DNA from: an uncultured Candidatus Peribacteria bacterium
Lineage (GTDB): Bacteria > Patescibacteriota > Gracilibacteria > Peribacterales > Peribacteraceae
NCBI GenBank assembly: GCA_964633955.1
Contig: CAZWIA010000002.1
Location: forward strand, 8,026-72,025
Direction of reading: 5' to 3'
DNA: 64,000 nucleotides
Positions 4,975-55,037 of this stretch are shown in pieces. The notes under the pieces were generated by a model. The model saw nothing but the letters and a program-made list of their open reading frames with translations. It ran no database searches and was not told the origin of the DNA. The number at the start of each line of letters is the position of its first letter. The stretch's first letter is position 1. Made by a program: the position numbers and the translations under genes.

Positions 4975-5203
4975 AGGGATGGTTTGAAGAAGAAATAAAG
5001 CAGTGGAAGTTGCTGTGAGTGGGAGTGTGAACCCCGTGTCTCCGCGTGAGGAGCGCGGTCGTGTAGTGGGTGGGTGAGCATCTGAGCGCGTACGCTAGTG
5101 ACGCTCGCCTCCTTAAATATAAAGAGTCACACGAGGGCGCCGACACCGTCTCCGGTCCGTGGCGGGGCCACGGCATCGCCGGGGAGTCAGGGGTGTGTCG
5201 CAC

Positions 5204-5221
5204 GGTCCGCCTCAGGCGGAC
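5204..5221. repeat. second copy of the GGTCCGCCTCAGGCGGAC hairpin
   Basis: Identical 18-mer to 602-619, located inside the long intergenic region upstream of the S-layer gene. Confidence 0.6.
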
Positions 5222-5604
5222 GTGAATCTCGTCATCCTGGTCATCGTCGGATTCATCCAACGTGACGCGCGGACTGGCGAGTGCCGAAATGACAACGAAC
5301 AGCGCTGACCGCGCTCTCCTTCTTCAACGGAGCGGATCACCGTGGATCCTACAAAGGCCCAGGGGGACCAGCAAGCGCCGTGGAGAACTCGGCAGCCCAG
5401 GAAACGCGGTGGTCCGGAGCGCGTTACACGGTCCGGCAGGCGGATTCCCGATCGAATACGGCCTTCCGCGGGCATTCCACGGCAAAGAACGGCTGCCAGA
5501 AGGGAAAAACACCCCGTTTTCCCCGTGATGCAAGGGTCTAAAATAGACTTGTCACTGTACATTTTTATGGTGATCGTTGTGAAGAGAGGCGGACATGGGC
5601 CGGG

Positions 5605-5672
5605 GAGTTACGGGTTACGAGTCACCAGTCACGAGTTGGAACCCGTAACGCGTACCTTCAAACTTGTAACTG
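5605..5672. repeat. heptamer-array hairpin (GTTACGR flavour) downstream of cysS
   Basis: Units GTTACGG GTTACGA GTCACCA GTCACGA. The stem is GTTACGGGTT (5607-5616) with AACCCGTAAC (5640-5649). A trailing AACTTGTAACTG follows. Confidence 0.65.
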
Positions 5673-5709
5673 CCTGTCCAAGGAATGGCGACCGCTACGC
5701 ACGGCGCAC

Positions 5710-7248
5710 TTACAGCTTGGCCACCCGCTGCCCCTCCGCCGTATCCCGCACGTCGTAGCCCTTCTCCTTTATACAGTCTCGTAACCGATCGGATTCCGCA
5801 AAATCCTTCCGCGCACGCGCCGCCGCGCGCTGGTCGACCAATGCTTGAACTTCAGCAGGGATCACTTGATCTTCTTCTGGCTCAAAGCAGCCGAAGGTTT
5901 CTCGGATCGTTCGCTGGAGATTCGCGAGGGCATCCGTTGATACATTGCTGCGGAATCTCTGATTGCGACTCCACGCCATGACATCGAACACCACAGCGAG
6001 TGCCGCCGGCGTGTTGAGATCCGCATTCATCGCTTCTGTAAATTCCTGCTCGAAGTCCTGAATTTCATTTCTGAGGAAATCTTCAGAATGTGAGTTCACT
6101 GTCAATCCAGTATCGCCCGCAAGAGCCGGGCTCCAGCCGATCGGATTCTCCGTCATCCACTCCATAATCTTCCTCCTCGCCTTCTTGGCATCTTCCATCC
6201 CCTTCCAGCTGAACTTCAAATTGGTTCGGTAATGCACTGAGAGCAAATAATACCGAAGGTCGAGCGGGTGATAGCCGCGCGCGATGAAGTCATCTAACAC
6301 GTAGACGTTCCCTAAGCTCTTACTCATCTTCTCGCTCATCCCCTGCTCGTTGACAATGTCGATGAACCGCCGGTGCAGCCACACCTGCACGAACTGCGTG
6401 CTGTTACCCCCGGAATGCATTCCGGGGCCAACATCCATGCTGCATTCGCTCTGCGCGATCTCACACTCATGGTGCGGGAAGATGTTGTCCTCCCCGCCGG
6501 TGTGGATGTCTATCTGCGCGCCCAGCTCCTTGCGCGCCATGGCGGAGCACTCAATGTGCCAGCCGGGGAACCCCGCGGCGGCGTCCTCGCCTTCCGTATG
6601 CACGCGCTCGCCGGATGTAAATGACCAGCGGAGGAGGTGATGCGCGTTCTCCCCCACGCACTTCTTCCAGAGGGCGAAGTCCGCCGGGTGCTTCTTGTGC
6701 TCGTGAACATCCACGCGCGCGCCGGCCGCCAGGTCATCAATCCTGTTGCCGGAGAGCTTGCCGTACTCCGGGAACGATCGGACATCAAAGTAAATGCCGT
6801 CCTCCACTTCATACGCGTGGCCGCCATCCATGAGTGTGCGGATGATCGCCAGCATCTCCGGTATGTACTGCGTGGCGCGCGGGCGAACTTCCGGTTCGAT
6901 GAAGTTCAATACCTTCTCATCCGCCAGATACTGCTGTGTGTAGCGTTCGGCGACCATAAGCGGATCGATCTTCTCCGCCTTGGCCTGCTTCTCAATCTTG
7001 TCCTCCCCCGTATCCGCATCCGCCACCAGGTGTCCCACATCCGTGATGTTCTTGGCGTGCTTCACGCTGTAGCCGCTCACGGTGAGCCACCGCCGGAGCA
7101 GGTCCGCCAGTAAGAAGGAGGCGTAGTTGCCCAGGTGCGGCCGGCCGTAGACCGTGGGCCCGCAGGTGTACATGGTGACCTGCGGCGGATGCAGGGGAGC
7201 AAACACTTCTTCCTTCTTGGTGAGGGAGTTGTAGAGCGTGAGGGCCAT
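5710..7248 (-). CDS. cysS: cysteine--tRNA ligase
   Basis: 512 aa. Class I HIGH-type motif (HLGN) and a KMSKS motif, with full-length similarity to CysS by eye. Confidence 0.95.
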
Positions 7249-14270: not shown

Positions 14271-14350
14271 GATCAGTGGTCAGTGGTGAGTGGTCAGTCA
14301 TGGAGAAACGTATTGTTTCCTGACCACTGATCACTGACCACTCGCCACTG
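14271..14350. repeat. heptamer-array hairpin (CAGTGGT flavour) between the XRE and recJ stops
   Basis: The left arm CAGTGGT CAGTGGT GAGTGGT CAGTCA pairs with the right arm TGACCACTGATCACTGACCACTCGCCACTG. The right arm encodes the last 5 codons of recJ. Confidence 0.75.
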
Positions 14351-20383: not shown

Positions 20384-20569
20384 GGCGGAGGGGAGGATAG
20401 CGCGAATCGATCCCCGTACAAATCGGATCTCTTCATCAACTGGAGTTATGAAGTATGAATTAAGAATCATGAGCCGTTTTTCTCTGCATAATTCGTCATT
20501 CATGATTCACGATTCTCACAAAGAAAGCCCCTCTTCCGAGGAGCCCTCTTTTGGTTCTACCGCGACCAA

Positions 20570-25881: not shown

Positions 25882-25888
25882 CGGGCAG

Positions 25889-25945
25889 CGGTGAGCGATG
25901 AGCGATAGTGGTCAGTGGTTAGTGATTAGTGATTAGTAGCGAGCA
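25889..25945. repeat. one-armed heptamer array (AGTGRTY flavour) overlapping the dgt stop
   Basis: GTGAGCGAT GAGCGAT AGTGGTC AGTGGTT AGTGATT AGTGATT AGTAGCG. The last units encode ...ATNH-stop of dgt on the minus strand. Confidence 0.6.
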
Positions 25946-27060: not shown

Positions 27061-27241
27061 GGCGCCGGTTTCCGGACACGTCCAAACGACCGTTGCGTGG
27101 CTGAGCTCTATTCCCTGGAATCCCAGGTGGGTGACCGCAGCCCTACCTCCACGGAGGAGAGCGATTAAGCCTCCCTTAGAGCAGGTCAGGAAAAAAGCAT
27201 ATGGCCACCTGACGTATCGTCCAGACTCCGCTGAGGGTAAC

Positions 27242-32882: not shown

Positions 32883-32948
32883 GGCAAGTGATCAGTGGTG
32901 AGCATGACGCCGTTCTGATCACTGGCCACTCACCACTGATCACTTGCC
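32883..32948. repeat. heptamer-array hairpin with a perfect 20-bp stem (AGTGRYN flavour)
   Basis: GGCAAGTGATCAGTGGTGAG (32883-32902) is the exact reverse complement of CTCACCACTGATCACTTGCC (32929-32948). It starts 2 nt after the stop codon. Confidence 0.8.
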
Positions 32949-32994
32949 CGTCGCTTCACTGACAACCGCATTTCTGACACACTCCCTGCACTCC

Positions 32995-36409: not shown

Positions 36410-36456
36410 CGGAATTGAGAATGGATAATTGAAAATTGAGAATTATGGAAGTTGAG
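36410..36456. repeat. 47-nt C-free heptamer array in the gatC-gatA spacer
   Basis: AATTGAG AATGGAT AATTGAA AATTGAG AATTATG GAAGTTG AGA. There is no cytosine from 36410 to 36456. Confidence 0.75.
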
Positions 36457-36842: not shown

Positions 36843-36912
36843 AGAATCAAGAATCATGAGTGATGCATCATGAGAAGCCGCTATTCATAATTCCTGACTC
36901 ATAATTCATACT
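36843..36912. repeat. heptamer-array inverted repeat (AATCATGAG flavour) between gatC and rnpA
   Basis: AGAATCA AGAATCA TGAGTGA TGCATCA TGAGAAG pairs with CTATTCATAATTCCTGACTCATAATTCATACTT. Confidence 0.6.
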
Positions 36913-36922
36913 TCCCCCACTT

Positions 36923-39669: not shown

Positions 39670-40983
39670 ATGATCGATCTCCAAGATCTCCGCGCCCGGC
39701 CGGATACGTACCAGGACGCCGCCAACAACAAGGGGGTGAAGGTGAGCATCAAGGACATCCTGCAACTTGATGAGAAGCGGCGGGAGCTGCTCCCCAAGGT
39801 GGAGGAGATGCGCGCTAGGAAGAACAAGGTGAGCAAGATGGTGCCAAGCTTGAAGGACATGGAGCGGGAAGTGGCCATCAAGGACATGAAAGCGTTGGAC
39901 GGTGAACTGAAGATCCTGGAAGCCGAACTGGGCAAGGTGGAGGCGGAGTGGCAGGCCAACCTGCTCCGGATTCCCAACCTCCCGCTGCCGGAAGTGCCCG
40001 TGGGTCACAGTGAAGAGGAGAACAAGGTGATCCGCACCGTGGGCACGCCCAGGCAGTTCGATTTCCCGGTGAAAGACCACGTGGCCATTGGGAAGGAGCT
40101 GGACATCATTGATGTGGAGCAGGCGGCCGTGGTGAGCGGCAGCCGGTTTGCGTACTTGAAAGGCGACGCCGTGCGGCTGCAGATGGCGCTCATCCAGTTT
40201 ACGTTCGATACCCTGGGGAATGAGGCGATCTTGAAAGAGGTAGCCAAGCGAGCCAAGTTGCGCGTCTCCACCAGGCCCTTTGTGCCGGTGCTGCCGCCGG
40301 TCATCATGCGGCGGGACGTGATGGAGCGTATGGACCGCCTGGAGCCGGAAGACCAGCGCTACCTGCTGCCGGAGGACGAGCAGGTGCTGGTGGGTTCCGC
40401 AGAGCATACGCTGGGGCCGTACTATATGGAGAAGACGCTGGATGTGGCGGAACTGCCTATCCGTTTCATCGGGTACTCCACCGCCTTCCGGCGGGAAGCC
40501 GGCACTTACGGCAAGGACATGGGCGGCATCCTGCGCGTGCACCAGTTTGATAAGCTAGAGATGGAGAGCTTCACCACGGCCGAGGCCGGCGCGGACGAGC
40601 AGCGGTTCATCGTGGCGCTGCAGGAGCACATGGTTGAGCAACTGGCGATCCCGTACCGCGTCCTGCAGAAGTGCACGTGGGACATCGGCAAGCCCAACGC
40701 CAACGGCCTGGATATCGAGTGCTGGATCCCGGCGCAGAACACGTACCGTGAGACGCACACGAGTGACTACATGACGGACTACCAGGCCAGGCGCCTCAGC
40801 ACGCACTACAGGACGGCCAGCGAGGAGCGCAAGCTCGTGCACATGAACGACGCCACGGCCTTCGCCATCGGCCGAACCATCATCGCCATCCTGGAGAACC
40901 ACCAGAGCGCCGACGGCAGCGTGACGATCCCGGAAGTCCTGCGACCGTACATGGGGGGGCAGGAGAGGATTGCGAAGCGGTGA
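39670..40983 (+). CDS. serS: serine--tRNA ligase
   Basis: N-terminal coiled-coil arm and class II core (FRREAGTYGKDMGGILRVHQFDKLE, TAFAIGRTIIAILENHQ). Confidence 0.95.
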   Translation: MIDLQDLRARPDTYQDAANNKGVKVSIKDILQLDEKRRELLPKVEEMRARKNKVSKMVPSLKDMEREVAIKDMKALDGELKILEAELGKVEAEWQANLLRIPNLPLPEVPVGHSEEENKVIRTVGTPRQFDFPVKDHVAIGKELDIIDVEQAAVVSGSRFAYLKGDAVRLQMALIQFTFDTLGNEAILKEVAKRAKLRVSTRPFVPVLPPVIMRRDVMERMDRLEPEDQRYLLPEDEQVLVGSAEHTLGPYYMEKTLDVAELPIRFIGYSTAFRREAGTYGKDMGGILRVHQFDKLEMESFTTAEAGADEQRFIVALQEHMVEQLAIPYRVLQKCTWDIGKPNANGLDIECWIPAQNTYRETHTSDYMTDYQARRLSTHYRTASEERKLVHMNDATAFAIGRTIIAILENHQSADGSVTIPEVLRPYMGGQERIAKR

Positions 40984-41038
40984 AAAGGGCAGAAAGGGTG
41001 AAAGGGGTGAAAACGATACAGGGGTGACAAGGGTGGGA
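40982..41038. repeat. left (C-poor) arm flanking four-helix-bundle gene 1
   Basis: GAAAAGGGCA GAAAGGGT GAAAGGGGT GAAAACGATACAGGGGT GACAAGGGT GGG. It starts at the serS stop codon. Confidence 0.65.
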
Positions 41039-41165
41039 CGCGTGAGGTGTTCAATGAGGGGACGGAACGTCACTTTATGCATGTAGAAGCGACAAACATC
41101 ATATCGCCGGAAGGATTGCGATCCTCGTACCTTCCGCTCTGTGGCTGGGCCTTTACGATGGAACT

Positions 41166-41519
41166 ATGCAGCGGCCGCATCAGAAACTCATCGTCTGGCA
41201 GGAGGCGTACTCGCTCTGCCTGCTGATTTACAAGACAACAAAGAAATTTCCACCGGAGGAACGGTATGCGCTCTGCGATCAGCTACGCAGAGCGGCTTCC
41301 AGCGTGCCGACCAACATTACAGAAGGGAATTATCGAACGACGCAAAAGGACCGGCGGCACTTCTTTGTCATTGCACACTCTTCTCTAGAAGCACTTCACT
41401 GCGAGATTCTACTCGCAAACGATTTGGGCTACATCAGCACGGAGGAGTTCGCATGTATCGATAGCCATATCGGACGTGTCGGCTTCCTCCTGAATCGGCT
41501 AATGAAAACAATCAAATAA
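41166..41519 (+). CDS. four-helix-bundle protein (23S rRNA intervening-sequence protein / Avd-like family)
   Basis: LIVWQEAYSLCLLIYKTTKKFPPEERYALCDQLRRAASSVPTNITEG is the family signature. Lower GC by eye. Confidence 0.85.
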   Translation: MQRPHQKLIVWQEAYSLCLLIYKTTKKFPPEERYALCDQLRRAASSVPTNITEGNYRTTQKDRRHFFVIAHSSLEALHCEILLANDLGYISTEEFACIDSHIGRVGFLLNRLMKTIK

Positions 41520-41530
41520 AGCTCTACCAT

Positions 41531-41605
41531 ATCCTTGTCACCCTTTTAACCCTTTTAACCCTTTTCGCCCTTTCCGTCCTTTCCACCCTTTTCTTTTCGC
41601 CCTCG
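41531..41605. repeat. right (G-poor) arm flanking four-helix-bundle gene 1
   Basis: ATCCTTGTCACC CTTTTAACC CTTTTAACC CTTTTCGCC CTTTCCGTC CTTTCCACC CTTTTC is an imperfect reverse complement of 40982-41038. Confidence 0.65.
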
Positions 41606-41623: not shown

Positions 41624-42730
41624 ATGCGCTTCCTCTTCACCCGCTTCCCGCTGGAATCCGCCTTTGGCGGAGCGGAGGTGCAGACCTTGTCCCTCATGGA
41701 CGGGCTGCGCGACCGGGGCCACTCCGTATCCTTCCTGGGCAGCTGCCAGACGCTCCTGGCGGAATGCAAGAAGCGCGGCATTGTAGCGACCGAGCGGGAC
41801 ATTGGCCCGCCGCCGGTGACCAAGCGGGACGCCGTGAGTTTCCTGTGGCGGCGGAGCGCCATGCGGCGAGCGCTCCGGGAGGAGATTGCGCGGCTGGGAT
41901 CCCAGGACGCGGTCCTCATGCTGAGCCTGACGGAGAAACTGCTCCTCACCCACCCGCTCCACGCTTCCGGCACGCGCGTGGTATGGGTGGAGCACGACCG
42001 GGTGGGCCGGTGGCTGCGTCGCAATCCTTGGTTGCCGCAGTTGCGGCGCATGAGCGCCTACGCCACCACGGTGACCGTCTCCGGCCTCAGCCGGCGGATC
42101 TACCTGGATCTGGGATTCCCCCCGGAACGCGTGACGGTGATCCCGAACGGCATAGACCTCCGGCGATTCCCACCGTCTGTCCGGCCACGCACGGGCGGCG
42201 TGCCCCACGTGGGGTGCGTGGCGCGGCTGTCTTGGGAGAAGGGCGTGGACGTGCTCATAGGCGCGCTCGGCCGGGTATCCGGCGTGCGGGCCACCATTGT
42301 GGGCGGAGGGCCGGAGGAGGGCGCGATCTCACGGCAGATCACGGAGGAGAAGCTGGCCGGACGGGTGAAGATCATAGCGCCCGGGCGCGATCTCCGGGAC
42401 TTCTACCAGTCGATCGACCTGCTAGTTCTCCCATCCCGCGATCACGATCCCTTTGGTCTGGTGGCGGCGGAAGCCATGGCGCTGGGGATTCCGGTAATTG
42501 TCACGGACGCGTGCGGCATAGCGGAATACTGCTCCTCTGGCACGGACGCGGTGGTGGTGCCAGCGGGTTCCGTGAGCGCGCTGGAAGAGGCGATCGCGCA
42601 CCTGCGCGACCAGCCGCACTTGCGCCATGCGATCGGCGAAGCCGGACAACTGCGGGCCCGGCAGGCGTTCGGCGCGGAGCACATGGTGGACGCCTATGAG
42701 AAACTCCTCCAAAGGGATGCGCGCCGGTGA
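41624..42730 (+). CDS. GT4-family glycosyltransferase
   Basis: MRFLFTRFPLESAFGGAEVQTL N-terminus and a C-terminal E.FGLV..EAMALGIPVIVTD core. Confidence 0.85.
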   Translation: MRFLFTRFPLESAFGGAEVQTLSLMDGLRDRGHSVSFLGSCQTLLAECKKRGIVATERDIGPPPVTKRDAVSFLWRRSAMRRALREEIARLGSQDAVLMLSLTEKLLLTHPLHASGTRVVWVEHDRVGRWLRRNPWLPQLRRMSAYATTVTVSGLSRRIYLDLGFPPERVTVIPNGIDLRRFPPSVRPRTGGVPHVGCVARLSWEKGVDVLIGALGRVSGVRATIVGGGPEEGAISRQITEEKLAGRVKIIAPGRDLRDFYQSIDLLVLPSRDHDPFGLVAAEAMALGIPVIVTDACGIAEYCSSGTDAVVVPAGSVSALEEAIAHLRDQPHLRHAIGEAGQLRARQAFGAEHMVDAYEKLLQRDARR

Positions 42731-42752
42731 AGGATGGGTACAATGCCCCGGC

Positions 42753-45284
42753 ATGAAGCACGCCACATCGCTCATCGCGATCCTTTCCACGGTCGCCACG
42801 CTCGGTAGCGCTCCGTTGGACCAATTGCCGCTCGCGCCCCATTTTCCTCTTGCTCACGTCTCACATCTCACATCTCAGGTCTCAGGTCTCGCCGCCTCCC
42901 GCCAAGCAGCCGGCACCAACGGCCTGCATGTCTTTGCCGCCCCCATCGATGCGCTCAGTGTGACGCTCAGGGAGAAAGACCAGACCGCGCAGGTGCGCGC
43001 GTTTGACGGCACTGCATGGAGCGCCTGGGAGGAACTCCGGGTGGAGGATGAACAGGACCCAACGCTCATGGAATCGAACCTCGTGGTGTTCCAGGTACCC
43101 GTGGGCACGGTCGAATTCCGGAGCAGCGCACAGTTCACAGTGAATCCCATCCGGGTCTCAGGCGCGCCTGCGTCCTACCGCGTGGCAGCCACTCAAGATG
43201 TAGGGACGCCGCGCATCCTCTCCCGCCGGGACTGGGGGGCGGATGAGAGCCTGAGGCTCAGAAACGGCCACGCGCCCAGCCGCAGCGACGACGACATCAC
43301 GAGCGAGGTGAGCGGCAACGGCGCGCTCACTGCCCGCCAGCGGGAGTGCCTGGATGCGATTGAAGGCTATCCCCAGGATTTCAAGCGCGCCAAGAAGCGG
43401 GTGGATGAGCTGAACGGCAAACCGCTCCTGTGGCCGCAGGAGTACTCGCCGTCCATCGGGCTCCTGGTCGTGCACCACACCGCTGTTCGGTCGGACGGCG
43501 ATACACGGCCTGGCGCGGAGCGCATGCGCGCGCTGTATCAGTACCATGCCGTGAACCGCGGCTGGGGGGACATTGGCTACCACTACGTGATTGACGATGA
43601 CGGCCGGATCTACCAAGGCCGTGCCGGCGGCGACCGAGTGGTGGGCGGCCACGCGTACTGCAATAACGTGGGGACACTGGGCATCGCACTCATGGGGAAC
43701 TTTGAGGTAGAGGAGCCCACCCAGAAGCAGGTAAAGAGCCTGCAGTGGCTGCTCCAGCACCTGGCGGAGCAGGAGGAGATAGACCTGCAGACGGACGTCA
43801 CGTACCATGGCAAGTCCCTCCCGCGCATCGTGGGCCACCGGCAGCTCCTGACTACTGACTGCCCCGGCTACTACCTCTACGAGGCCATGGACCAGCTGCG
43901 CAGCAACGTGGCAGCCGGACGGATAGACAAGGCGCTCGTGTTCCCGGAGGGCGCGCAGCGCATGAGTCAGAAGCAGGACAAGCCGCGGGCAACGATCGCC
44001 ATAGGCCAGAAAGGGACGTTCTTCTTTCAGGACGCAGACTACGTGGGGCGGCCGGGCGGGGACGTGCTCTTCCCCGTGCGGTTTTTGGCCAGCCAGGCGC
44101 TCAGCCAGCGCAGCGTGATTGGCAAGCTCACCCGCTCAGACGAGCGCCTGGCGGTATACCTGGTAGGCGAGCAGGAGGCCGTGCGCCTCCGGGACAACGT
44201 GCTGCTGCCGCAGTTCCTGCGCAAGGGGGACACCACCACGCTCTACATCCGCGTGGTCCTGCCGCCGGATCCGGGAACGTACCAGCTCACCATAGATTCC
44301 CTCCGCTACACGCTCAAGGCGGAGGGCCGCCGCGTGCGCACCGCCACGGCCGTGGGCCAGAGGCGGCTCTCCCGCCAGGCCGGCCAGACGCTTGGTTCTC
44401 AACCGAATGGCGGCAGCGCCTCTCCCGCCGCGCCGGCACCCACGGCGCCGGACAACGGCCCCCTGGTCCGTATCCTGCTGAGTTACGAGTCCAACGATCC
44501 GGATCATCCCGACCGCGCGTTCCTGGACGCGCCGCAGGGCGCCAGACTGGACGGCAAGCCGGTCAGCGGCACCGTGGTCTTTGAGAAGAAGGGCGATACG
44601 TGCGAGGCGAGCAACGAGCTGGGCTTCCTGGCTGGCGGTACGCCCCGCCTCCACCCGCACGGCAAGATCCTCACCGTAGAGAGTTGGAATTCCGCCTTTA
44701 ACCAGTTCCGCGGCACGATCGAATGCCGGATTGTGGACGGACGCTTAGCGCTCATCAATGAACTCCCCATGGAGGACTACCTGCGGGGACTGGCGGAGGA
44801 GCCGGATTCAGAGCCCTATGAGAAGCAGCGCGCGTTCGCGATTGCGGCGCGCACCTACGCGCAGTGGTACCTGAGCCCCCAGAACCGCAAGTTCCCCGGC
44901 AAGCCGTATGATGGATCAGACAGTCCGGCCGTGTTCCAGAAGTACTCCGGCTACGCCTATGAACTGAAACATCCGAGCTGGCTCAAGGCGCTCGAATCCA
45001 CCAGGCACCAAGTGCTCCTGAAGGACGGCCAGCTCATCAAGCCGCCGTACTTCTCACAGAGTAACGGCCGGACCCTCAGCCCCGCCGAAGCCGGCTGGAA
45101 GACGTTCCCGTTTGCGGAGGTCTTTGCGAGCAAGCCGGACCCCTGGTGCCAGGGCATGGAGCAGCGCGGGCATGGCGTTGGCATGAGCGGCTGCGGCGCG
45201 GAAGCCCAGGCGGAGGAGGGCAAGACCGCGGAGGAGATTTTACAATACTATTATACGGGGATCACAATCGGACGGGTGAGATGA
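42753..45284 (+). CDS. fusion protein: signal peptide, N-acetylmuramoyl-L-alanine amidase (Amidase_2/PGRP-type) domain, SpoIID/LytB domain
   Basis: The amidase part has LLVVHHTAV, GYHYVIDDDGRIYQGR, GGHA..N..TLGIALMGNF and GHRQL..TDCPG. The SpoIID part has MEDYLRGLAEEP, QKYSGY, PPYFSQSNGRT and GHGVGMSGCGA. Confidence 0.85.
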   Translation: MKHATSLIAILSTVATLGSAPLDQLPLAPHFPLAHVSHLTSQVSGLAASRQAAGTNGLHVFAAPIDALSVTLREKDQTAQVRAFDGTAWSAWEELRVEDEQDPTLMESNLVVFQVPVGTVEFRSSAQFTVNPIRVSGAPASYRVAATQDVGTPRILSRRDWGADESLRLRNGHAPSRSDDDITSEVSGNGALTARQRECLDAIEGYPQDFKRAKKRVDELNGKPLLWPQEYSPSIGLLVVHHTAVRSDGDTRPGAERMRALYQYHAVNRGWGDIGYHYVIDDDGRIYQGRAGGDRVVGGHAYCNNVGTLGIALMGNFEVEEPTQKQVKSLQWLLQHLAEQEEIDLQTDVTYHGKSLPRIVGHRQLLTTDCPGYYLYEAMDQLRSNVAAGRIDKALVFPEGAQRMSQKQDKPRATIAIGQKGTFFFQDADYVGRPGGDVLFPVRFLASQALSQRSVIGKLTRSDERLAVYLVGEQEAVRLRDNVLLPQFLRKGDTTTLYIRVVLPPDPGTYQLTIDSLRYTLKAEGRRVRTATAVGQRRLSRQAGQTLGSQPNGGSASPAAPAPTAPDNGPLVRILLSYESNDPDHPDRAFLDAPQGARLDGKPVSGTVVFEKKGDTCEASNELGFLAGGTPRLHPHGKILTVESWNSAFNQFRGTIECRIVDGRLALINELPMEDYLRGLAEEPDSEPYEKQRAFAIAARTYAQWYLSPQNRKFPGKPYDGSDSPAVFQKYSGYAYELKHPSWLKALESTRHQVLLKDGQLIKPPYFSQSNGRTLSPAEAGWKTFPFAEVFASKPDPWCQGMEQRGHGVGMSGCGAEAQAEEGKTAEEILQYYYTGITIGRVR

Positions 45285-45290
45285 GGAGCA

Positions 45291-45382
45291 CGATCGAATG
45301 TGGAATGTGGAATATCGAATGTCGAACGATCGTACGCAAGGATGCTGATCGATATTCCACATTCGATATTCGACATTCGATC
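45291..45382. repeat. heptamer-array hairpin (GAATGTS flavour) between convergent genes
   Basis: The left arm GAATGTG GAATGTG GAATATC GAATGTC GAACGATCG pairs with the right arm GATCGATATTCCACATTCGATATTCGACATTCGATC. Confidence 0.75.
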
Positions 45383-45422
45383 AGCCTCTCTTGGAAACCG
45401 GAACAGGGCGCGATGAACACCT

Positions 45423-48549: not shown

Positions 48550-49686
48550 CTACCTTGAGAGAATTTGCAGATAGTCCGCAAAAACAAATAGCCGGTTTCT
48601 CCTCTTGCCTGTGATTTCATGCAAAATTTTCTGATCGATGAATCGCCTCGTGAGATCGTTTGCGGATTTCGTCGTGAGGCCGGTCGCCTGCTCCACATCC
48701 TTTACGGTCAAAACGGGCTGAGTGAACAGCTGCTGTAGGAGTTTTTGCCCAGCTGTCACCTGTCTGCCCATCTTGGGGAGACGCTCGGTCATAAGAGCAT
48801 CTCGCAGTGCCATAATCTCCTGCAAGGTCCGAGCCGCATGCAGCGCAGTCTGCTCAACTGCATCCAAGAAGAACCGAACCCAACTCGTTAAATCGTTTTT
48901 TTCGCGCACCAGGGTCAAGCGGTCAAAGTACAATGTCTTATGCTTCTCAAAGTAGTCCGACGTATAGAGCAACGGAGCGTCGATCATCCCGAAGTGCATC
49001 AAAGACAAGGTGATGAGCAATCTTCCAATTCTTCCATTGCCATCAAGAAACGGGTGAATCGTTTCAAACTGATAATGGCAAATTGCCACCCTGACCAGAT
49101 TCGGCATTGCAATCGATTCATTCTGCATGAAGCGTTCCAGATCCGAGAGAAGATCCGGGAGATGCTCCGCGCTCGGCGGAATGAACATCGCATCATTCAA
49201 CGTGGCGCCACCGATCCAGTTTTGGCTTTTCCGAAATTCTCCCGGCTCTTTTCTCTCACCCCTTCCGTGAGAGAGTAAAATGCGATGCGACTCACGAATC
49301 AGCCGGCTGGAAAGAGGCAGCGCCTGGAGAGAACGCAGTGAGTGATCCATCGCCCTGATGTACTGATGCACCTCTAACCAAGTATCACGCTCTTCAGGAG
49401 CGATATCAGCCTCATCGGTGAATGCCTGCTCCATATTCGTTCGCGTACCTTCAATCCGGCTAGAAGTTACGGCCTCTTTTCGCACATACGATCGAATGAA
49501 CCGATTCATGTCCGGTATAAGCCGGGCAAAGGAGTTCAGTTCCCCTAATCGCAAAGAGGCACTTTCCAGCTTGCGCTGAATGAGAGCATCACTGATCGTC
49601 CAATCATGGTTAACTGGCTCAGGCAAAAAGTATTCATACTGGAAACCCTTTCGCTTTTTGCCAGCAATAAAATCCCGTAGATCCAT
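48550..49686 (-). CDS. fic: Fic-family protein (class II: N-terminal inhibitory helix, Fic core, C-terminal wHTH)
   Basis: HPFLDGNGRIGRLL core, an upstream SSRIEG motif ([S/T]xxxE[G/N]), and a C-terminal LTVKDVEQATGLTTKSANDLTRRF. Lower GC by eye. Confidence 0.9.
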   Translation of the reverse strand: MDLRDFIAGKKRKGFQYEYFLPEPVNHDWTISDALIQRKLESASLRLGELNSFARLIPDMNRFIRSYVRKEAVTSSRIEGTRTNMEQAFTDEADIAPEERDTWLEVHQYIRAMDHSLRSLQALPLSSRLIRESHRILLSHGRGERKEPGEFRKSQNWIGGATLNDAMFIPPSAEHLPDLLSDLERFMQNESIAMPNLVRVAICHYQFETIHPFLDGNGRIGRLLITLSLMHFGMIDAPLLYTSDYFEKHKTLYFDRLTLVREKNDLTSWVRFFLDAVEQTALHAARTLQEIMALRDALMTERLPKMGRQVTAGQKLLQQLFTQPVLTVKDVEQATGLTTKSANDLTRRFIDQKILHEITGKRRNRLFVFADYLQILSR

Positions 49687-49783: not shown

Positions 49784-50272
49784 TCACGCCCCCCAATCCA
49801 GCTCCTTCAGGTGATCCACCACCCGGCCCTCCACAACACACACCAGATCCATCCGATACCCGCCTTCATACCCGCGCTCTCTGACCCACCGCCTGGCGGC
49901 GCGGACCATAGCGCGGCGCTTCCGGGCATCCAGCCCCAGCTCCGGCCGGAAGTCCTGGGACCAGGCGGATCGCGCCTTCACTTCCACAAAGACCAGGGAC
50001 TGTTCACTCGGGTCGTACGCCAGGATGTCGATCTGATCCCGCTCCAGCCGCACGTCCCGCCCCAGCACCAGAAAGCCGCTCCGCTGGAGGTACGTGAGCG
50101 CCACATCCTCCCCCCGCCGCCCCACCGTCCGCCGATCCACCGATCGGTTGAGCGGCGCCGCAGGCAGTCCCAGGAGACGCACCACGGCCAACACTGTACG
50201 CGTTCGGAGGCTGCCCGTCGCCGAGCGGGACACAGGTTTGCCGCCTGTCCAGGAATTCCGCTGGTGCCTCAT
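49784..50272 (-). CDS. yraN: YraN-family (UPF0102) endonuclease-like protein
   Basis: GRRGEDVALTYLQRSGFLVLGRDVR....QIDILAYD....LVFVEVKAR core. The true start may lie downstream of the ORF start. Confidence 0.8.
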   Translation of the reverse strand: MRHQRNSWTGGKPVSRSATGSLRTRTVLAVVRLLGLPAAPLNRSVDRRTVGRRGEDVALTYLQRSGFLVLGRDVRLERDQIDILAYDPSEQSLVFVEVKARSAWSQDFRPELGLDARKRRAMVRAARRWVRERGYEGGYRMDLVCVVEGRVVDHLKELDWGA

Positions 50273-50334
50273 GGTGTACGACCGTACACTAGTCCCATCG
50301 CCTCCTCCACTCCCACTTCTTCCCCCCGCCTCCT

Positions 50335-51831
50335 ATGCTCACGCAGCTCACGTCCTTCGCCACGATCGGCCTCACCTGCGAACGCATCACGGTGGAAGTG
50401 GGCACCGCGCCGGGGGAATCCAAATTCTTCATTGTGGGTCTGGGGGACACGGCCGTGCAGGAGAGCAAGCACCGGGTGCTCCTGGCCATCCGCCAGAGCG
50501 GCTTCCGGCGGATGGGATCCCGCGTCATCACGGTAAACCTGGCGCCGGCGGACCTGCGCAAGGTAGGCCCGCGGTACGATCTGCCCATCGCCCTGGGCCT
50601 CCTGATCGGCTGCGGACAGGTCACGGTCCCGGAGGAAGCGCTCACGGATACGGCATACTTGGGGGAGCTGGCGCTGGATGGAACGCTGCGCCACGTCTCC
50701 GGCGTGCTGCCCGCCACCATCGCCGCGCGGAAGGCAGGCATCCGCCGGATCGCCGTCCCCGCGGTGAACGCGCCGGAAGCTATGCTGATTTCCGGTATAG
50801 AGGTGATTGCGGCGGAGAGCCTCCCGCAGCTCATCCGCGTCCTGAACGGCGAGGAGCCTGTGCCAGCGGTGCGTTCTCACCGGCAGACATCTTCCCTCCC
50901 CGGCGGAGTGGTGGACTTTGCGGACGTGCGCGGCCAGGAGCAGGCCAAGCGGGCGCTGACCATTGCGGCCGCGGGCGGTCACAACGTGCTCCTCTCCGGC
51001 ACGCCGGGCTCCGGCAAGACGCTCCTGGCCCGGGCCTTCCGCGGCATCCTGCCGCCCCTCTCTGAGGAAGAAGCCATAGAGGTCACGCAGATCTACAGCA
51101 TCGCCAACCTCCTGCCCAAAGACGCGCCCCTGCTCACGGATCGCCCCTTCCGCGTGGTGCACCACACGGCCAGCGGCGTGTCCATCGTGGGCGGCGGGCA
51201 GGTGCCGGGACCCGGAGAGATCAGCCTTGCCCACAAGGGCGTCCTCTTCCTAGATGAGCTGGCGGAGTTCCCCACGCAGGTGCTGGAAGTGCTCCGCCAG
51301 CCGCTGGAGGACCGCACCATCACCATCACGCGCGCGCAGGGCGCGGTCACGTTTCCGGCGGACTTCATCTTGGTCGCCGCCATGAATCCGCCGCAGTTCT
51401 CCGCCGGCGGCGCGCAGCGGATCCGGCAGCGGATCTCCGCGCCGCTCCTGGACCGCATTGACCTGACCGTAGACGTCCAGGCGGTGCCGATCGCAGACCT
51501 GCAGGCGCCGCCAGCCCGGAGATCCGACAGCTCATCGGAACTGCGGGCCAAGGTGGAACAGGCCCGCATCAGGCAGCACGAGCGGTTTTCCGGACTCCCC
51601 ATCCTGACCAATCGGGAGATGGGTGTGAGGGAGATCGACCAGTTTTGTCCGCTGGACCAGGCATCGGAGCGGATCCTCAAGCAAGCAACGGAGCGGCTTG
51701 GGCTCTCCGCGCGGGGTTACCATAGGATGGTGAAAGTGGCTCGGACCATCGCGGATTTGGAGGACAGCCATGCCATCCAGATGCAGCACGTGGCAGAAGC
51801 GCTGCAGTACAGGCAGAACGTGACGGGGTGA
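50335..51831 (+). CDS. comM: ComM/YifB Mg-chelatase-like AAA+ protein
   Basis: Lon-like N-domain, Walker A GTPGSGKT, GVLFLDELAEF, and a C-terminal RGYHRMVKVARTIADLE. Confidence 0.9.
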   Translation: MLTQLTSFATIGLTCERITVEVGTAPGESKFFIVGLGDTAVQESKHRVLLAIRQSGFRRMGSRVITVNLAPADLRKVGPRYDLPIALGLLIGCGQVTVPEEALTDTAYLGELALDGTLRHVSGVLPATIAARKAGIRRIAVPAVNAPEAMLISGIEVIAAESLPQLIRVLNGEEPVPAVRSHRQTSSLPGGVVDFADVRGQEQAKRALTIAAAGGHNVLLSGTPGSGKTLLARAFRGILPPLSEEEAIEVTQIYSIANLLPKDAPLLTDRPFRVVHHTASGVSIVGGGQVPGPGEISLAHKGVLFLDELAEFPTQVLEVLRQPLEDRTITITRAQGAVTFPADFILVAAMNPPQFSAGGAQRIRQRISAPLLDRIDLTVDVQAVPIADLQAPPARRSDSSSELRAKVEQARIRQHERFSGLPILTNREMGVREIDQFCPLDQASERILKQATERLGLSARGYHRMVKVARTIADLEDSHAIQMQHVAEALQYRQNVTG

Positions 51832-51832
51832 T

Positions 51833-51865
51833 GAGTTACCAGTTTGAAGTTACGAGTTACAAGTT
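51833..51865. repeat. left arm flanking four-helix-bundle gene 2 (AGTTACR heptamers)
   Basis: GAGTTACC AGTTTGA AGTTACG AGTTACA AGTT. It ends 1 nt before the ATG at 51866. Confidence 0.8.
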
Positions 51866-52276
51866 ATGGATATGCAACATTCCACCTCGACTACAGCACA
51901 GATGCTGAATAAAGCCGGCTTCCGATCTCTTTTTTCTTGGCAGGAGGCAAAGAAATTAAGTCTGGATGTTTACGAGATAACCAAATCCTTTCCCGCCAGC
52001 GAGCGATTCCACCTGGTGGATCAACTGAGAAGGGCATCGAGCTCAGTCATGTCGAATTTGGCCGAAGGCTCAGCGATGTCGACACGCGATCATCAGAATA
52101 GCTTCTATGTTCGGGCAAAGGGATCAGCCATCGAGGTCGACAACTTCATAGAGCTTGCCTTTCCGCTTGGTTATATTACAGAGAATGAATATCATAGCCT
52201 GAGCAACAGTTACATCCGGCTTTCGGGGACGATCGAGCGCCTGATTCGATCGCCGCGTAGACACCTCCGGACCTGA
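51866..52276 (+). CDS. four-helix-bundle protein (23S rRNA intervening-sequence protein / Avd-like family)
   Basis: FSWQEAKKLSLDVYEITKSFPASERFHLVDQLRRASSSVMSNLAEG. Lower GC by eye. Confidence 0.85.
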   Translation: MDMQHSTSTTAQMLNKAGFRSLFSWQEAKKLSLDVYEITKSFPASERFHLVDQLRRASSSVMSNLAEGSAMSTRDHQNSFYVRAKGSAIEVDNFIELAFPLGYITENEYHSLSNSYIRLSGTIERLIRSPRRHLRT

Positions 52277-52309
52277 ACTCGTAACTTGTAACTTGTAACT
52301 CGTAACTTC
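52277..52309. repeat. right arm flanking four-helix-bundle gene 2
   Basis: AACTCGTAACTTGTAACTTGTAACTCGTAACTT. Positions 52290-52308 are the exact reverse complement of 51847-51865 (19/19). Confidence 0.8.
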
Positions 52310-52322
52310 CCCCTCCCCCGCC

Positions 52323-53282
52323 ATGCGCCCCCGCCTCCTCCTCGCCGTCCTCACCCTCCTCCCCCAGATCGCCCTTGCCGCCAGTCCAAGCACGCTGGCC
52401 GATCTGGCAACCGTCATTCGCAACCAGACCGGCCCGTACGCGCTGAGCGCGGAGATGCACGCGCACGTGCCGGGAATGTTCTACGTCTCAGCCTGGATGA
52501 AGGGGGACAGTGAGAAGACCGGCCCCCTGAGCAGCAAGGGGAACCTGAAGACCACCGTGGACCTGTCCGATGGCACGCTCACCGGTCGTATCCGCGGCCG
52601 CCTCCGCGTGGACGGCACCACGCTCTACATGATTCTGGACAGCCTGGAAGGCACGTTCCCGGAAGAAGCCCGGAGCGCGCAGGGCAGGGTGCCCGTGGGC
52701 CAGTGGTTCAAGGCAACCATGCCCGTGGAAGAGTCCGATCTTCAGGAGTCTCTGCGGATGCAGACCGATCTCCTGACCGGCCTGGAGGAACTGCTGGATA
52801 CCACCCGTACGGAGACGGCGGGCGGCACGGAGTACACGGTCAGCCTGAAACCGGAGGCCCAGATGCAACTGGCGGCACTGGTGCGCATGCTGACCAGTTC
52901 CCTGCAGACGGAACTGCAGAAGAAGGGGATCGGCTCCAGCGCGCTACTCCCCCATACCATGCCCGCCGTGACGGTGAAAGCGCGGGTGCGTCTGGGCGCC
53001 AGCAATACGCTCTTGCTGTTCCGCCAGTACGTGGCCGCGGAGGATCCGCCAGTTCTCCGCTTTGCCCTGCAGAGCGAACAAGTGCCGTCCAATGTGCCCG
53101 TGACCGTGGAGATTCCCGCAGGCGCCATAGACCTCTCAAGCGAACTGCCGGCGAACCTTGCGCCCGCTCCAGCCGGCTCTCGGTCGTCTTTGGAGACGGA
53201 TTGCAGTGTGACCGGCGCCGCCAAGCTGGCCCTCATCCGCAAGGGGCTCTGCCAGGACAGCCGCCCCTCGCGCCGCCGCTAG
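52323..53282 (+). CDS. secreted hypothetical protein
   Basis: Signal peptide MRPRLLLAVLTLLPQIALAAS. No family recognised. Confidence 0.6.
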   Translation: MRPRLLLAVLTLLPQIALAASPSTLADLATVIRNQTGPYALSAEMHAHVPGMFYVSAWMKGDSEKTGPLSSKGNLKTTVDLSDGTLTGRIRGRLRVDGTTLYMILDSLEGTFPEEARSAQGRVPVGQWFKATMPVEESDLQESLRMQTDLLTGLEELLDTTRTETAGGTEYTVSLKPEAQMQLAALVRMLTSSLQTELQKKGIGSSALLPHTMPAVTVKARVRLGASNTLLLFRQYVAAEDPPVLRFALQSEQVPSNVPVTVEIPAGAIDLSSELPANLAPAPAGSRSSLETDCSVTGAAKLALIRKGLCQDSRPSRRR

Positions 53283-53303
53283 CCCTTCAAGCTCGACCAA
53301 GGG

Positions 53304-53329
53304 AAAAGGCGGCCGCTGGCCGCCTTTTT
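53304..53329. terminator. bidirectional rho-independent terminator
   Basis: AAAAGGCGGCC-GCT-GGCCGCCTTTTT between convergent genes. Confidence 0.8.
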
Positions 53330-53369
53330 CTGGTCAATGATCCCTGCCTAATGACCACTCGCCGCTCAC

Positions 53370-55037
53370 TCACTCCCAGCGCGTCCCGCTCGCCAGGGGA
53401 GAGGGCAGGTCCACCCAGGTGAAGTGACCGGTGCCGTCCGTCCAGCGCACGGCGCCGATCTCCCCCACCGTTCCCGGGGCTACCAGGCTCACCTGCAGGA
53501 AGCGGCCCCCACCACCCGTGGCGGACACGGTCCCATGGAGCCGCAGCGTGCGCTGGCCGTTCTGCAGACGGCCCAGCTCCGCCGGGATAGCGGCGCAGGT
53601 GACGGTGGAGCCGTTCGCCGAGCACGTCACGCGCGTAGCCGTATCCGCCGCGCCCAGCTGCCAGTTACTCACCGTGACCTGGTCGGCCTTGGTGACGGAG
53701 AACTGCAGCTCCTCCAGGTCCAGGGACGCGGGAGAGAGCGCGGCGCCGGAGAAGGCGAACGCCGCCAGAACCTGATCGGATCCAAGGGGAAGCGCGCCGG
53801 TGGCATCTGCGGCGTTGCGCGCGGACAGCAGCCGTGCCTGGGCCGTCTGGTGCTTGGGAGAGACGCCGGTCTGGAGTGCCGCATCGATCGAACTCTCGCT
53901 CCACACGCCTTGCAGCGTAAGGGAAACTGTATCCACCCACAGGAGCTCTTCCGATTCTCCGCCGCCGTCGCGCGGCTTCAGGCGCGCACGGACACCCAGG
54001 ATACGGGACTGGGATTTGGGAATCTCATAGGCGCCCTCCAGGGCATACGTGCCGCGCCAGGTCTTATTGGTAGCGTCGTTGCCATCTTTACTGAGGAGGC
54101 CAATGAGCCTGCCGTCCTGATCGATCAGCTCCAGCCGATCGATGGACTTCACCTCGTTCCGCAAGGTCATCCGCGCGCCGCGGACGCGGACCGGCTCCTG
54201 TTCGGAGAAGAAGGAGGCGCCCGCCACCGCCGGGCTCAGCTGCCCCAGTAGGAGGATATGGCTCCGGACGGGGAAGTCCGCTATGGAGGAAACCGAGGAC
54301 GAAGAGGAAACCGAGGAGGCCGAGGAGGCCGAGGAAGAGAAAGAAGAGGAAGCTGAGGACACGGCAGAGGAAGAGGAAGAAGCACTGGGGAGCTCTCCGC
54401 GCTCGGCCTGGCGGTACAGATCCAGCTCACCGGCCGCATGCGCCTCAAACGCGGCGGCCAACCGCGCCATCTGTCCGCGCGTGAGCGCATCTGCAGGCTG
54501 GGTGCCGGAGAGCGCTAGCTTCTCCCGGGCCGCCACGCGGACATAGGTCTGGTACCACGCTTCCAATACCAGCGGATCGGTGGGGCCCAGCTCCAGAGCG
54601 TACGCCTCCGCCAGGATCTTGAGCGCCTCCGCGTAGTTCACGGACCGCTCCGGATGAAAGAGCCCATCCGGATTCCCGCGCACGACGCCGAGGGCCTTGG
54701 CCGTGCAGACATCGGCTTCAAACCAGCTGTCCCGCGGCACGTCCGGGAAGCAGCCGGGCGTGAACCCCTGCACCACCTGCCGGTGCCGCGCCAGGAGGCG
54801 CATGGCGATCTTGGTGAACTCCGCGCGGTTTATTGTGCGGCGCGCCTCAAAGCGGCCCGTTGGGTTCCCCTGCACCACGCCAATGGACGTGAGCAGGCCA
54901 ATCCCCGCGCGTTCCGCCGTGGTGAAGGAGGAAGCATCGCGGTACGATGAAACGCTGGGACGGTAGTCCAGCGCCAGCGCGGTCAGGGGGAGAAGGACAG
55001 CGAGCGTAGCTGTCGCCAGGGTGCGGTGAGTCATCAT
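53370..55037 (-). CDS. SLH-domain cell-surface protein with a Ser-rich linker
   Basis: Signal peptide and SLH-type modules (..RTINRAEFTKIAMRLL; FPDVPRDSWFEADVCTAKALGVVRGNPDGLFHPERSVNYAEALKIL), then a poly-Ser linker and a beta-rich C-terminal region. Confidence 0.8.
   Translation of the reverse strand: MMTHRTLATATLAVLLPLTALALDYRPSVSSYRDASSFTTAERAGIGLLTSIGVVQGNPTGRFEARRTINRAEFTKIAMRLLARHRQVVQGFTPGCFPDVPRDSWFEADVCTAKALGVVRGNPDGLFHPERSVNYAEALKILAEAYALELGPTDPLVLEAWYQTYVRVAAREKLALSGTQPADALTRGQMARLAAAFEAHAAGELDLYRQAERGELPSASSSSSAVSSASSSFSSSASSASSVSSSSSVSSIADFPVRSHILLLGQLSPAVAGASFFSEQEPVRVRGARMTLRNEVKSIDRLELIDQDGRLIGLLSKDGNDATNKTWRGTYALEGAYEIPKSQSRILGVRARLKPRDGGGESEELLWVDTVSLTLQGVWSESSIDAALQTGVSPKHQTAQARLLSARNAADATGALPLGSDQVLAAFAFSGAALSPASLDLEELQFSVTKADQVTVSNWQLGAADTATRVTCSANGSTVTCAAIPAELGRLQNGQRTLRLHGTVSATGGGGRFLQVSLVAPGTVGEIGAVRWTDGTGHFTWVDLPSPLASGTRWE

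Follow-up and report, generated by a model that had tools for sequence, protein, structure and literature searches.

In a 64,000-nt stretch of DNA from an uncultured Candidatus Peribacteria bacterium (NCBI GenBank assembly GCA_964633955.1, contig CAZWIA010000002.1, positions 8,026 to 72,025; hereafter the window), a small gene of the four-helix-bundle family PF05635 lies between comM and the next gene, enclosed by two mutually complementary tandem arrays of heptamers. This cassette is built like the intervening sequences (IVSs) of 23S ribosomal RNA (rRNA) that bear an open reading frame (ORF), and it most likely works like one, judging by that analogy. A second family member in the window has the same design, as do many relatives elsewhere, and we conclude that, in several phyla and in rRNA, the PF05635 family either carries a stem of inverted tandem repeats along with it or has one maintained around it. 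Since the early 1990s, ORF-bearing rRNA IVSs have stood as a curiosity without explanation; to our knowledge PF05635, a very large family, has no known function.

An initial reading of the bare sequence (the sequence-only reading) had described a perfect 19-bp inverted repeat around the ORF. The repeat lies exactly where it had been placed, with AAGTTACGAGTTACAAGTT at 51847–51865 ending directly 5′ of the ATG at 51866 and its exact reverse complement at 52290–52308, 13 nt past the stop codon (52274–52276). Its length was slightly understated: an inverted-repeat search gave a perfect repeat of 21 bp (Table 1), around which the inverted repeat reaches 32 nt at 84% complementarity. Both arms are heptamer arrays of 4.7 copies each (51834–51866 and 52276–52308; Tandem Repeats Finder), as expected from the earlier description of a stem of heptamer units enclosing the ORF. 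The first in-phase unit of the 5′ array contains the comM stop codon, the first unit of the 3′ array begins with the ORF's own stop codon, and the heptamer pattern occurs 10 times in the window against 0.01 occurrences expected by chance. The whole unit of ~480 bp (51828–52309) fills the entire 491-nt gap between comM and the next gene, and all three genes lie on the same strand. The predicted RNA fold of 51826–52316 is closed by a terminal stem (z = −3.3), and none of 100 shuffled sequences was as stable.

The family assignment made from sequence is confirmed by profile searches, in which the ORF (51866–52276) matches PF05635 with E = 6.5e-30 (103.9 bits, cut-off 33.8; profile positions 3–104 of 106) and TIGR02436 with 96 bits (cut-off 24). 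By sequence, the closest solved structure is that of Xcc0516 (PDB 2GSC, E = 5.5e-14), deposited with five chains. Both the small protein and ComM have their best relatives in Candidatus Peribacteraceae (Peregrinibacteria, candidate phyla radiation, CPR), where comM orthologues share 64–72% identity. The guanine-plus-cytosine (GC) content of the ORF, 49.9% compared to 67.3% in comM and 66.2% in the downstream gene, agrees with the patch of lower GC noted before. The claim that the start codon immediately adjoins the stem holds for the longest ORF (ATG at 51866) but fails if translation begins at Met13 (51902), which leaves 36 nt between arm and start codon. Since relatives in the family alignment begin four to eight residues before a conserved GFR motif, Met13 is probably the true start.

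In keeping with the stated location outside rRNA, no rRNA was found in the window, and an Rfam scan of the arms gave no match. A consensus scan of 50200–53400 revealed neither a sigma-70 promoter nor a hairpin-plus-T terminator, although the sigma-70 consensus may not fit CPR bacteria; the 3′ arm is followed by CCCCTCCCCC and does not qualify as an intrinsic (rho-independent) terminator. Profile searches detected no transposase domain in the cassette, and the flanks just outside the arms have no direct repeat of at least 4 nt in common that could represent a target-site duplication. An exact-sequence look-up of the 136-amino-acid product returned no record. In the public Logan assembly of the same organism (L081, 4998–5488), the gene finder left the PF05635 gene uncalled; low-GC cassette genes in high-GC CPR genomes may be systematically missed by annotation.

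When the protein was searched against the window by tblastn, a second family member with 39% identity was found at 41166–41519, between serS and a family 4 glycosyltransferase gene. It is likewise flanked by inverted tandem arrays, but these are built from a different unit with a period near 9, and the predicted fold of 40968–41600 has a closing stem of ~60 bp (z = −9.2). The two copies have neither arm sequence nor arm period in common, which, together with their low identity, argues against recent transposition.

The sequence-only reading had made its proposal depend on whether other copies of the family also carry complementary arms. The second window copy does, and so do about half of the relatives that we surveyed, compared to 1–3% in controls. 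For this survey, 80 loci encoding relatives were retrieved (one genome per species). In 75 of them, the 150 nt preceding the start codon were compared with the 150 nt following the stop codon, and the highest-scoring ungapped inverted repeat was recorded, with scores of at least 12 counted as strong. This threshold was reached by 35 of 75 true flanks, but by only one of 75 when the 3′ flank was reversed and by two of 75 when direct repeats were scored. These loci are not independent, as 38 represent one syntenic Flavobacteriaceae locus (signal peptidase, gene, WbqC-like gene), 12 the Peribacteria locus nrdR-gene-aspS, five one Chitinophagaceae locus, and three one Prevotellaceae locus. Therefore, we rejected a count over independent loci and restated the results per context: strong repeats flank 10/38 Flavobacteriaceae loci, 10/11 Peribacteria nrdR-aspS loci, 4/5 in Chitinophagaceae, 1/3 in Prevotellaceae, and 10/18 singleton contexts. 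They are present in at least four conserved contexts in addition to the singletons.

The arms consist of tandem units of 6–9 nt whose sequence depends on the lineage, for example GGCAGRAAG in Peribacteria, ATTTGKT in Flavobacteria, and GGAAAATGGAGAAT in Chitinophagaceae. In the 5′ stem arms, C is nearly absent (37 of 865 paired positions in all surveyed cassettes, L001–L080 and the window), and the 3′ arm is nearly free of G. This polarity looks identical from either strand and so gives no indication of the relevant strand, but it leaves each arm with little ability to fold alone, before its partner is available. The neighbouring genes are mostly co-directional with the PF05635 gene, which we regard as supportive only because ORF-based calls are noisy in high-GC genomes. 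RNA duplex energies between the flanks were dropped as uninformative, since arms of related lineages cross-pair and 150-nt flanks give strong chance duplexes.

Three cyanobacterial plasmid copies (Nostoc, Anabaena sp. 90, and Leptolyngbya) lie co-directionally within gene strings and have purine-rich tandem arrays running up to the ATG and pyrimidine-rich tracts after the stop codon, with complementarity judged by eye. The Anabaena copy has cas6 and cas4 as its neighbours and follows a 360-nt heptamer array. On that plasmid (pANA02; L167, 820–1182), CAGGTGA and CAGGGAA heptamers span the gap from cas6 to the four-helix-bundle gene of a type I-D cas operon, and, by eye, a complement after the stop codon is apparent only for the final ~17 nt ahead of the ATG (GGGAAGAGGAGTTATTT).

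The two arms change together in orthologous cassettes of Peribacteria. Among 11 orthologous nrdR-gene-aspS cassettes, the unit pairs vary by genome (GGCAG/CTGCC, GTAAG/CTTAC, GGTCT/AGACC, and GGCAAAGAGG/CCTCTTTGCC), and a cassette's own 5′ and 3′ arms match with a mean score of 14.7, compared to 9.9 across different cassettes; none of 5000 permutations attained the score of the true pairs. The same permutation test was weak in Flavobacteriaceae (160/5000) and gave no signal in Chitinophagaceae, whose arms are simply conserved. Ratios of non-synonymous to synonymous substitution rates (dN/dS) of 0.03–0.23 between orthologues indicate that the protein is retained by purifying selection, and orthologous cassettes persist at one locus across a whole bacterial family. 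In 77 of 78 loci, the ORF is poorer in GC than its flanks; the difference averages 6.8 points and is 18 points in the comM-spacer cassette of the window.

The sequence-only reading had suggested looking in relatives for comM junctions without the gene. A metagenome scan with comM returned 80 loci, of which only six were Peribacteria-like. One relative (L088) indeed has an empty junction, with 27 nt between the comM stop codon and the pyrF ATG. In P. riflensis (L084/L085), comM is followed by a PF05635 gene with 8-mer arms (GGGAACTA and TAGTTCCC), and in L090/L091 by a PF05635 gene with GGGTTAG and CCCTACG-like heptamer arms. In L087, AATGACC heptamers begin at the comM stop codon, after which the contig ends. 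An IS200-like Y1 transposase gene occupies the junction in L086/L089, whereas in L083 a low-GC ORF on the other strand is followed by the homologue of the window's downstream gene, with no PF05635 gene between comM and this homologue. At every occupied junction, the 5′ array starts at, or overlaps, the upstream stop codon, and 0–30 nt separate the end of the 3′ array from the next ATG. The PF05635 proteins at these junctions (P. riflensis and L090/L091) are only 34–45% identical to any copy in the window or the panel, and their arms differ in unit and period; the closest relatives of the window's comM-spacer copy (55–63%) are not adjacent to comM.

These empty and variously occupied junctions support acquisition by insertion into the comM spacer, a hot spot in Peribacteraceae for the insertion of small foreign genes. 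Of the earlier suggestion of an autonomous, possibly mobile cassette, the acquisition by insertion is thus supported (empty junction, different cassettes, and low GC); neither recent movement of the cassettes nor transposition machinery was seen. Several further observations concern this neighbourhood. The L083 spacer ORF (5003–5608, minus strand) encodes 201 amino acids with no assigned family. The Y1 transposase genes (L086, 4003–4490; L089, 4003–4563) start in overlap with the comM stop codon (ATGA), and the L089 gene has an internal 34-nt palindrome. In the window, a Fic/DOC gene (48550–49686, minus strand) with 50% GC amid 67% GC lies 2 kb from the cassette; it is missing from the syntenic stretch of L083, where a 6-phosphogluconolactonase-like gene is directly followed by the UPF0102 gene, and it looks like another foreign insertion.

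Heptamer arrays also occur without a gene. The window holds at least eight such tandem-heptamer arrays or hairpins (Table 1), each hairpin arm comprising about four to five units, and gene-less arrays are also found in other Peribacteria loci (e.g., L003 358–451 and L090 1268–1376). Units recur among these loci: ATTCGAY at 378 and 45294–45381; CAGTGRT at 333, 14273, 25906, and 32870; and likewise TTATGAA. The unit GTTACNA is common to the 5600–5680 hairpin and the comM-spacer cassette. Arrays at 36412–36444 and 36883–36914, 440 nt apart, were considered as a third cassette and rejected, as gatC lies between them on the other strand. The 736-nt gap that ends in the degenerate GTTACNA hairpin (4975–5710, between two minus-strand genes) contains no PF05635 remnant, no convincing ORF, and no Rfam match. 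Elsewhere in the window, 5.4 copies of CTCACGT (42853–42890) lie within coding sequence, in the N-terminal part of a long amidase/SpoIID ORF (42627–45284), and a 6S RNA match (27075–27230, minus strand) barely attains the Rfam gathering score (46.8 versus 46.4 bits).

Table 1 Cassettes, host genes, and gene-less hairpins in the 64-kb window
Feature	Position	Strand	Description
comM/YifB-type Mg-chelatase-like AAA ATPase gene, upstream host gene	50335–51831	+	Pfam Mg_chelatase, ChlI, Mg_chelatase_C; TGA stop codon 51829–51831
comM-spacer cassette, 5′ arm	51828–51866	+	Heptamer array GTGATGA GTTACCA GTTTGAA GTTACGA GTTACAA GTTA (last unit in phase GTTATGG); perfect part 51846–51866
comM-spacer cassette, four-helix-bundle gene (PF05635/TIGR02436)	51866–52276	+	136 codons as longest ORF; likely start Met13 at 51902
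comM-spacer cassette, 3′ arm	52274–52309	+	Heptamer array TGAACTC GTAACTT GTAACTT GTAACTC GTAACTT; perfect part 52289–52309
Downstream host gene, 319 aa	52323–53282	+	Signal-peptide-like N-terminus; no Pfam match; begins 13 nt after the 3′ arm
Second cassette, 5′ arm	40974–41035	+	Tandem array GGTGAAAAG GGCAGAAAG GGTGAAAGG ..., period near 9; overlaps the serS stop codon
Second cassette, PF05635-type gene, 117 aa	41166–41519	+	GC 51%; tblastn, family alignment, PHROG Avd family (E = 1.2e-10)
Second cassette, 3′ arm	41530–41593	+	Complementary array ACCCTTTTA ACCCTTTTA ACCCTTTTC GCCCTTTCC ...; followed after 30 nt by the glycosyltransferase ATG (41624)
Gene-less tandem-heptamer hairpin	14275–14342		Intergenic, short loop; −48.9 kcal/mol, z = −5.6
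Gene-less tandem-heptamer hairpin	32883–32949		Intergenic, short loop; −41.4 kcal/mol, z = −6.2
Gene-less tandem-heptamer hairpin	45292–45384		Intergenic, short loop; −40.3 kcal/mol, z = −4.1
Weaker gene-less hairpins	20443–20509, 36843–36914, 5600–5680, 333–412, 25887–25937		

Taken together, we consider it probable that the comM-spacer unit is an IVS-type gene cassette in an operon spacer whose arms pair in the read-through transcript as an insulating and processing stem. The cassette would have arrived by insertion and then been kept. With neither a promoter nor a terminator of its own detected, it would be transcribed by read-through from comM, and the arms would pair in the transcript to form a duplex of 21–32 bp, folding the insert out of the way so that it does not disturb the host message. 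Once the insert is looped out, the comM stop codon would lie ~16 nt from the next ATG, compared to 27 nt at the empty site of L088. As double-stranded RNA, the duplex would be open to RNase III, which has been shown to cut the homologous Coxiella 23S IVS, and cleavage would release, limit, or control the mRNA of the cassette. The two readings offered at the outset, a mobile cassette and an RNA-processing stem, are not mutually exclusive.

Several points weigh against this explanation. A clearly significant inverted repeat was found in only about half of the surveyed relatives, with a particularly low share in the Flavobacteriaceae context. A strict periodicity score, although enriched ~30-fold over coding controls, was positive in only 20–27% of flanks, so that "tandem" is not universal at this stringency. 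Mismatches in the stems show no excess of G:U (52) over A:C (57), and although the register ambiguity of tandem arms weakens this test, nothing in it points specifically to sense RNA rather than DNA. We infer the RNA pairing, the read-through transcription, and the RNase III cleavage from the known IVSs and from predicted folds, and the promoter scan was made for sigma-70 only, which may not apply to CPR bacteria. The Peribacteria nrdR-gene-aspS cassettes (L001–L016) have a conserved TATGAT-, TAGGAT-, or TATCAT-like motif, often after TG, which lies 7–20 nt upstream of the PF05635 start, on the gene side of the 5′ arm. This motif could be the −10 element of an internal promoter, whose transcript would not include the 5′ arm. 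Finally, the ORF of the Coxiella IVS was judged probably not translated (PMC4990558), and the rRNA model is thus no guide to the role of the protein.

The arms might instead be terminal inverted repeats of a transposable unit, acting at the DNA level and recognized as a duplex or hairpin by a recombinase in trans or by the four-helix-bundle protein, in which case the RNA stem would be incidental. The patchy comM junction, empty in one relative and occupied by three or four different cassettes in others, is in line with this, as are the Y1 transposase gene at the same junction, the low GC of nearly all ORFs, the similar purine-rich arm motifs (GGGCAGAAAGGG) beside PF05635 genes in different Peribacteria gene contexts, and the mobility of IVSs proposed in the original literature, as quoted in PMC4990558. 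We nevertheless consider this explanation unlikely: there is no target-site duplication outside the arms and no recombinase in or beside either window cassette, the two window copies have diverged with unshared arms and periods, and orthologous cassettes have remained at a single locus throughout a bacterial family. Moreover, the arms of orthologues differ yet remain complementary, which is more in keeping with a constraint on structure than with the site of a sequence-specific recombinase. The same changes of unit and period, seen between window copies and between orthologues alike, bear on the idea that the tandem repeats are putative binding sites for the cassette's own, pentameric protein, serving autoregulation or RNA protection with complementarity as a secondary feature, because such a protein would need to change its specificity constantly. 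Most arrays in the window do have about four to five units, Xcc0516 is a homopentamer of four-helix bundles (Lin et al. 2006, as cited in PMC4990558), the related protein Avd is described as working with the reverse transcriptase bRT on an RNA template, and the protein is under purifying selection. However, four to five copies are also expected from the detection threshold and a stem of ~30 bp, and repeat-arm hairpins without a gene are common in the same genome; we regard binding sites as an improbable explanation of the arms.

As the genome carries a population of repeat-arm hairpins, one of them with the GTTACNA unit, it had to be tested whether a gene merely happens to lie between two intergenic heptamer hairpins. 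Such a coincidence is very improbable: each flanking array is a half-hairpin that has its sole partner on the far side of the ORF and pairs with it perfectly over 21 bp; the second window copy has the same build with different arms; in other phyla the arrangement is found far more often than in controls, and the three cyanobacterial plasmid copies look alike by eye; and the arms co-vary in orthologues. We give almost no credence to the gene being an Avd accessory protein of a diversity-generating retroelement (DGR). Related copies have bAvd Pfam matches and the second copy matches the PHROG Avd family, but the match of the comM-spacer copy to the Avd model NF033474 is weak (18.2 bits against an equivalog cut-off of 80), PADLOC gave no match, and Pfam scans of the neighbouring genes (Fic, YraN, comM, the signal-peptide-like protein, and an SLH protein for the comM-spacer copy; YidC, serS, glycosyltransferase, and amidase for the second) revealed no reverse transcriptase.

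A more far-reaching possibility, which we regard as rather doubtful, is that PF05635 cassettes and the gene-less hairpins of the same genomes belong to one undescribed class of stem-loop elements, autonomous in the first case and non-autonomous in the second, that colonize transcribed spacers (rRNA helices and operon gaps). Such elements would spread via a hairpin nucleic-acid intermediate, e.g., RNA excised by RNase III. An Avd-like pentamer would bind the five or so repeats of each arm and thereby protect, copy, or re-insert the element, and 23S IVSs would be the landing site noticed first.

If the stem-enclosed cassette is the normal form of the family, the rRNA IVS would be no peculiarity of ribosomal RNA but just one of the sites taken by a general element able to tolerate, or to exploit, its embedding in host transcripts. 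This would also explain why PF05635 genes turn up in unrelated operons such as cas loci. For cultivable Flavobacterium and Nostoc/Anabaena, this view predicts RNase III cleavage within mRNA spacers, an effect of the arms on the expression of neighbouring genes, and binding of the protein to its own repeats. For annotation, the flanking arrays should be treated as part of the gene's unit rather than as stray repeats. The added value of these results lies in the generalization beyond rRNA, which makes the nature of IVSs directly testable.

Among known systems, REPIN-RAYT pairs offer one parallel: the gene of a REP-associated tyrosine transposase (RAYT) is flanked by inverted repetitive extragenic palindromic (REP) sequences, and many solo REPINs are intergenic. 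In both cases, a small gene lies between inverted hairpin-forming repeats that are also present alone between genes of the same genome, but the gene here is not a Y1 HUH transposase, the repeats vary by locus, and no evidence of copying was found. Of the features of transposable elements (insertion sequences and miniature inverted-repeat elements), the cassette has the terminal inverted repeats, whereas a target-site duplication, near-identical copies, and a transposase were not found. With Avd of DGRs, it shares the four-helix-bundle superfamily, whose solved structures are pentamers, but no reverse transcriptase was found among the neighbouring genes scanned, no template or variable repeats lie nearby, and the equivalog score is far under the cut-off. 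Like cyanobacterial short tandemly repeated repetitive (STRR) sequences and the TAACTGA repeats of Beggiatoaceae (PMC4679880), the arms are short tandem heptamers in spacers that often end just 5′ of start codons, and the cyanobacterial PF05635 genes are themselves flanked by STRR-like intergenic arrays; those repeats have, however, been described as direct repeats with possible regulatory roles and not as paired inverted arms enclosing a gene.

The closest counterpart remains the ORF-bearing 23S IVS, known from Leptospira and from helix 45 of Coxiella. The IVS of Coxiella burnetii comprises 428–444 nt with a 28-bp terminal stem, an S23p (PF05635) ORF in the loop, and three to four tandem GACAGAT heptamers directly 5′ of the ATG, their number varying between strains; RNase III cleaves within the stem, a good ribosome-binding site is lacking, and the GC content is below that of the host (PMC4990558). 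PF05635 ORFs have also been found in rRNA insertions of CPR bacteria (PMC11270868), and eighteen PF05635 genes have been described as wedged inside cas operons, with no remark on repeats (PMC3936711). In our literature search, which was incomplete and may have missed an earlier account, we found no description of inverted tandem arrays around non-rRNA PF05635 genes. ORF-less short rRNA IVSs (Salmonella, Yersinia, and Campylobacter) are plain extended stem-loops cut by RNase III, as far as they are covered in PMC4990558; the three strongest gene-less hairpins of the window look like their non-rRNA counterpart, and the window's gene-less hairpins may equally be ordinary terminators or stabilizers. 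In conclusion, the analogy with 23S IVSs drawn from the sequence holds in the protein family, the ORF in the loop of a terminal stem, the size, the tandem heptamers of the 5′ arm by the ATG, the lower GC, and the lack of a good ribosome-binding site. Lying outside rRNA, the cassette is not a 23S IVS by membership: it has the ORF-enclosing complementary stem and the 5′ heptamers by the start, but its host is the mRNA spacer between comM and the next gene. RNase III cleavage, demonstrated in Coxiella, is proposed here by analogy, and while the Coxiella ORF is apparently decaying, the orthologues of this family are held under purifying selection.

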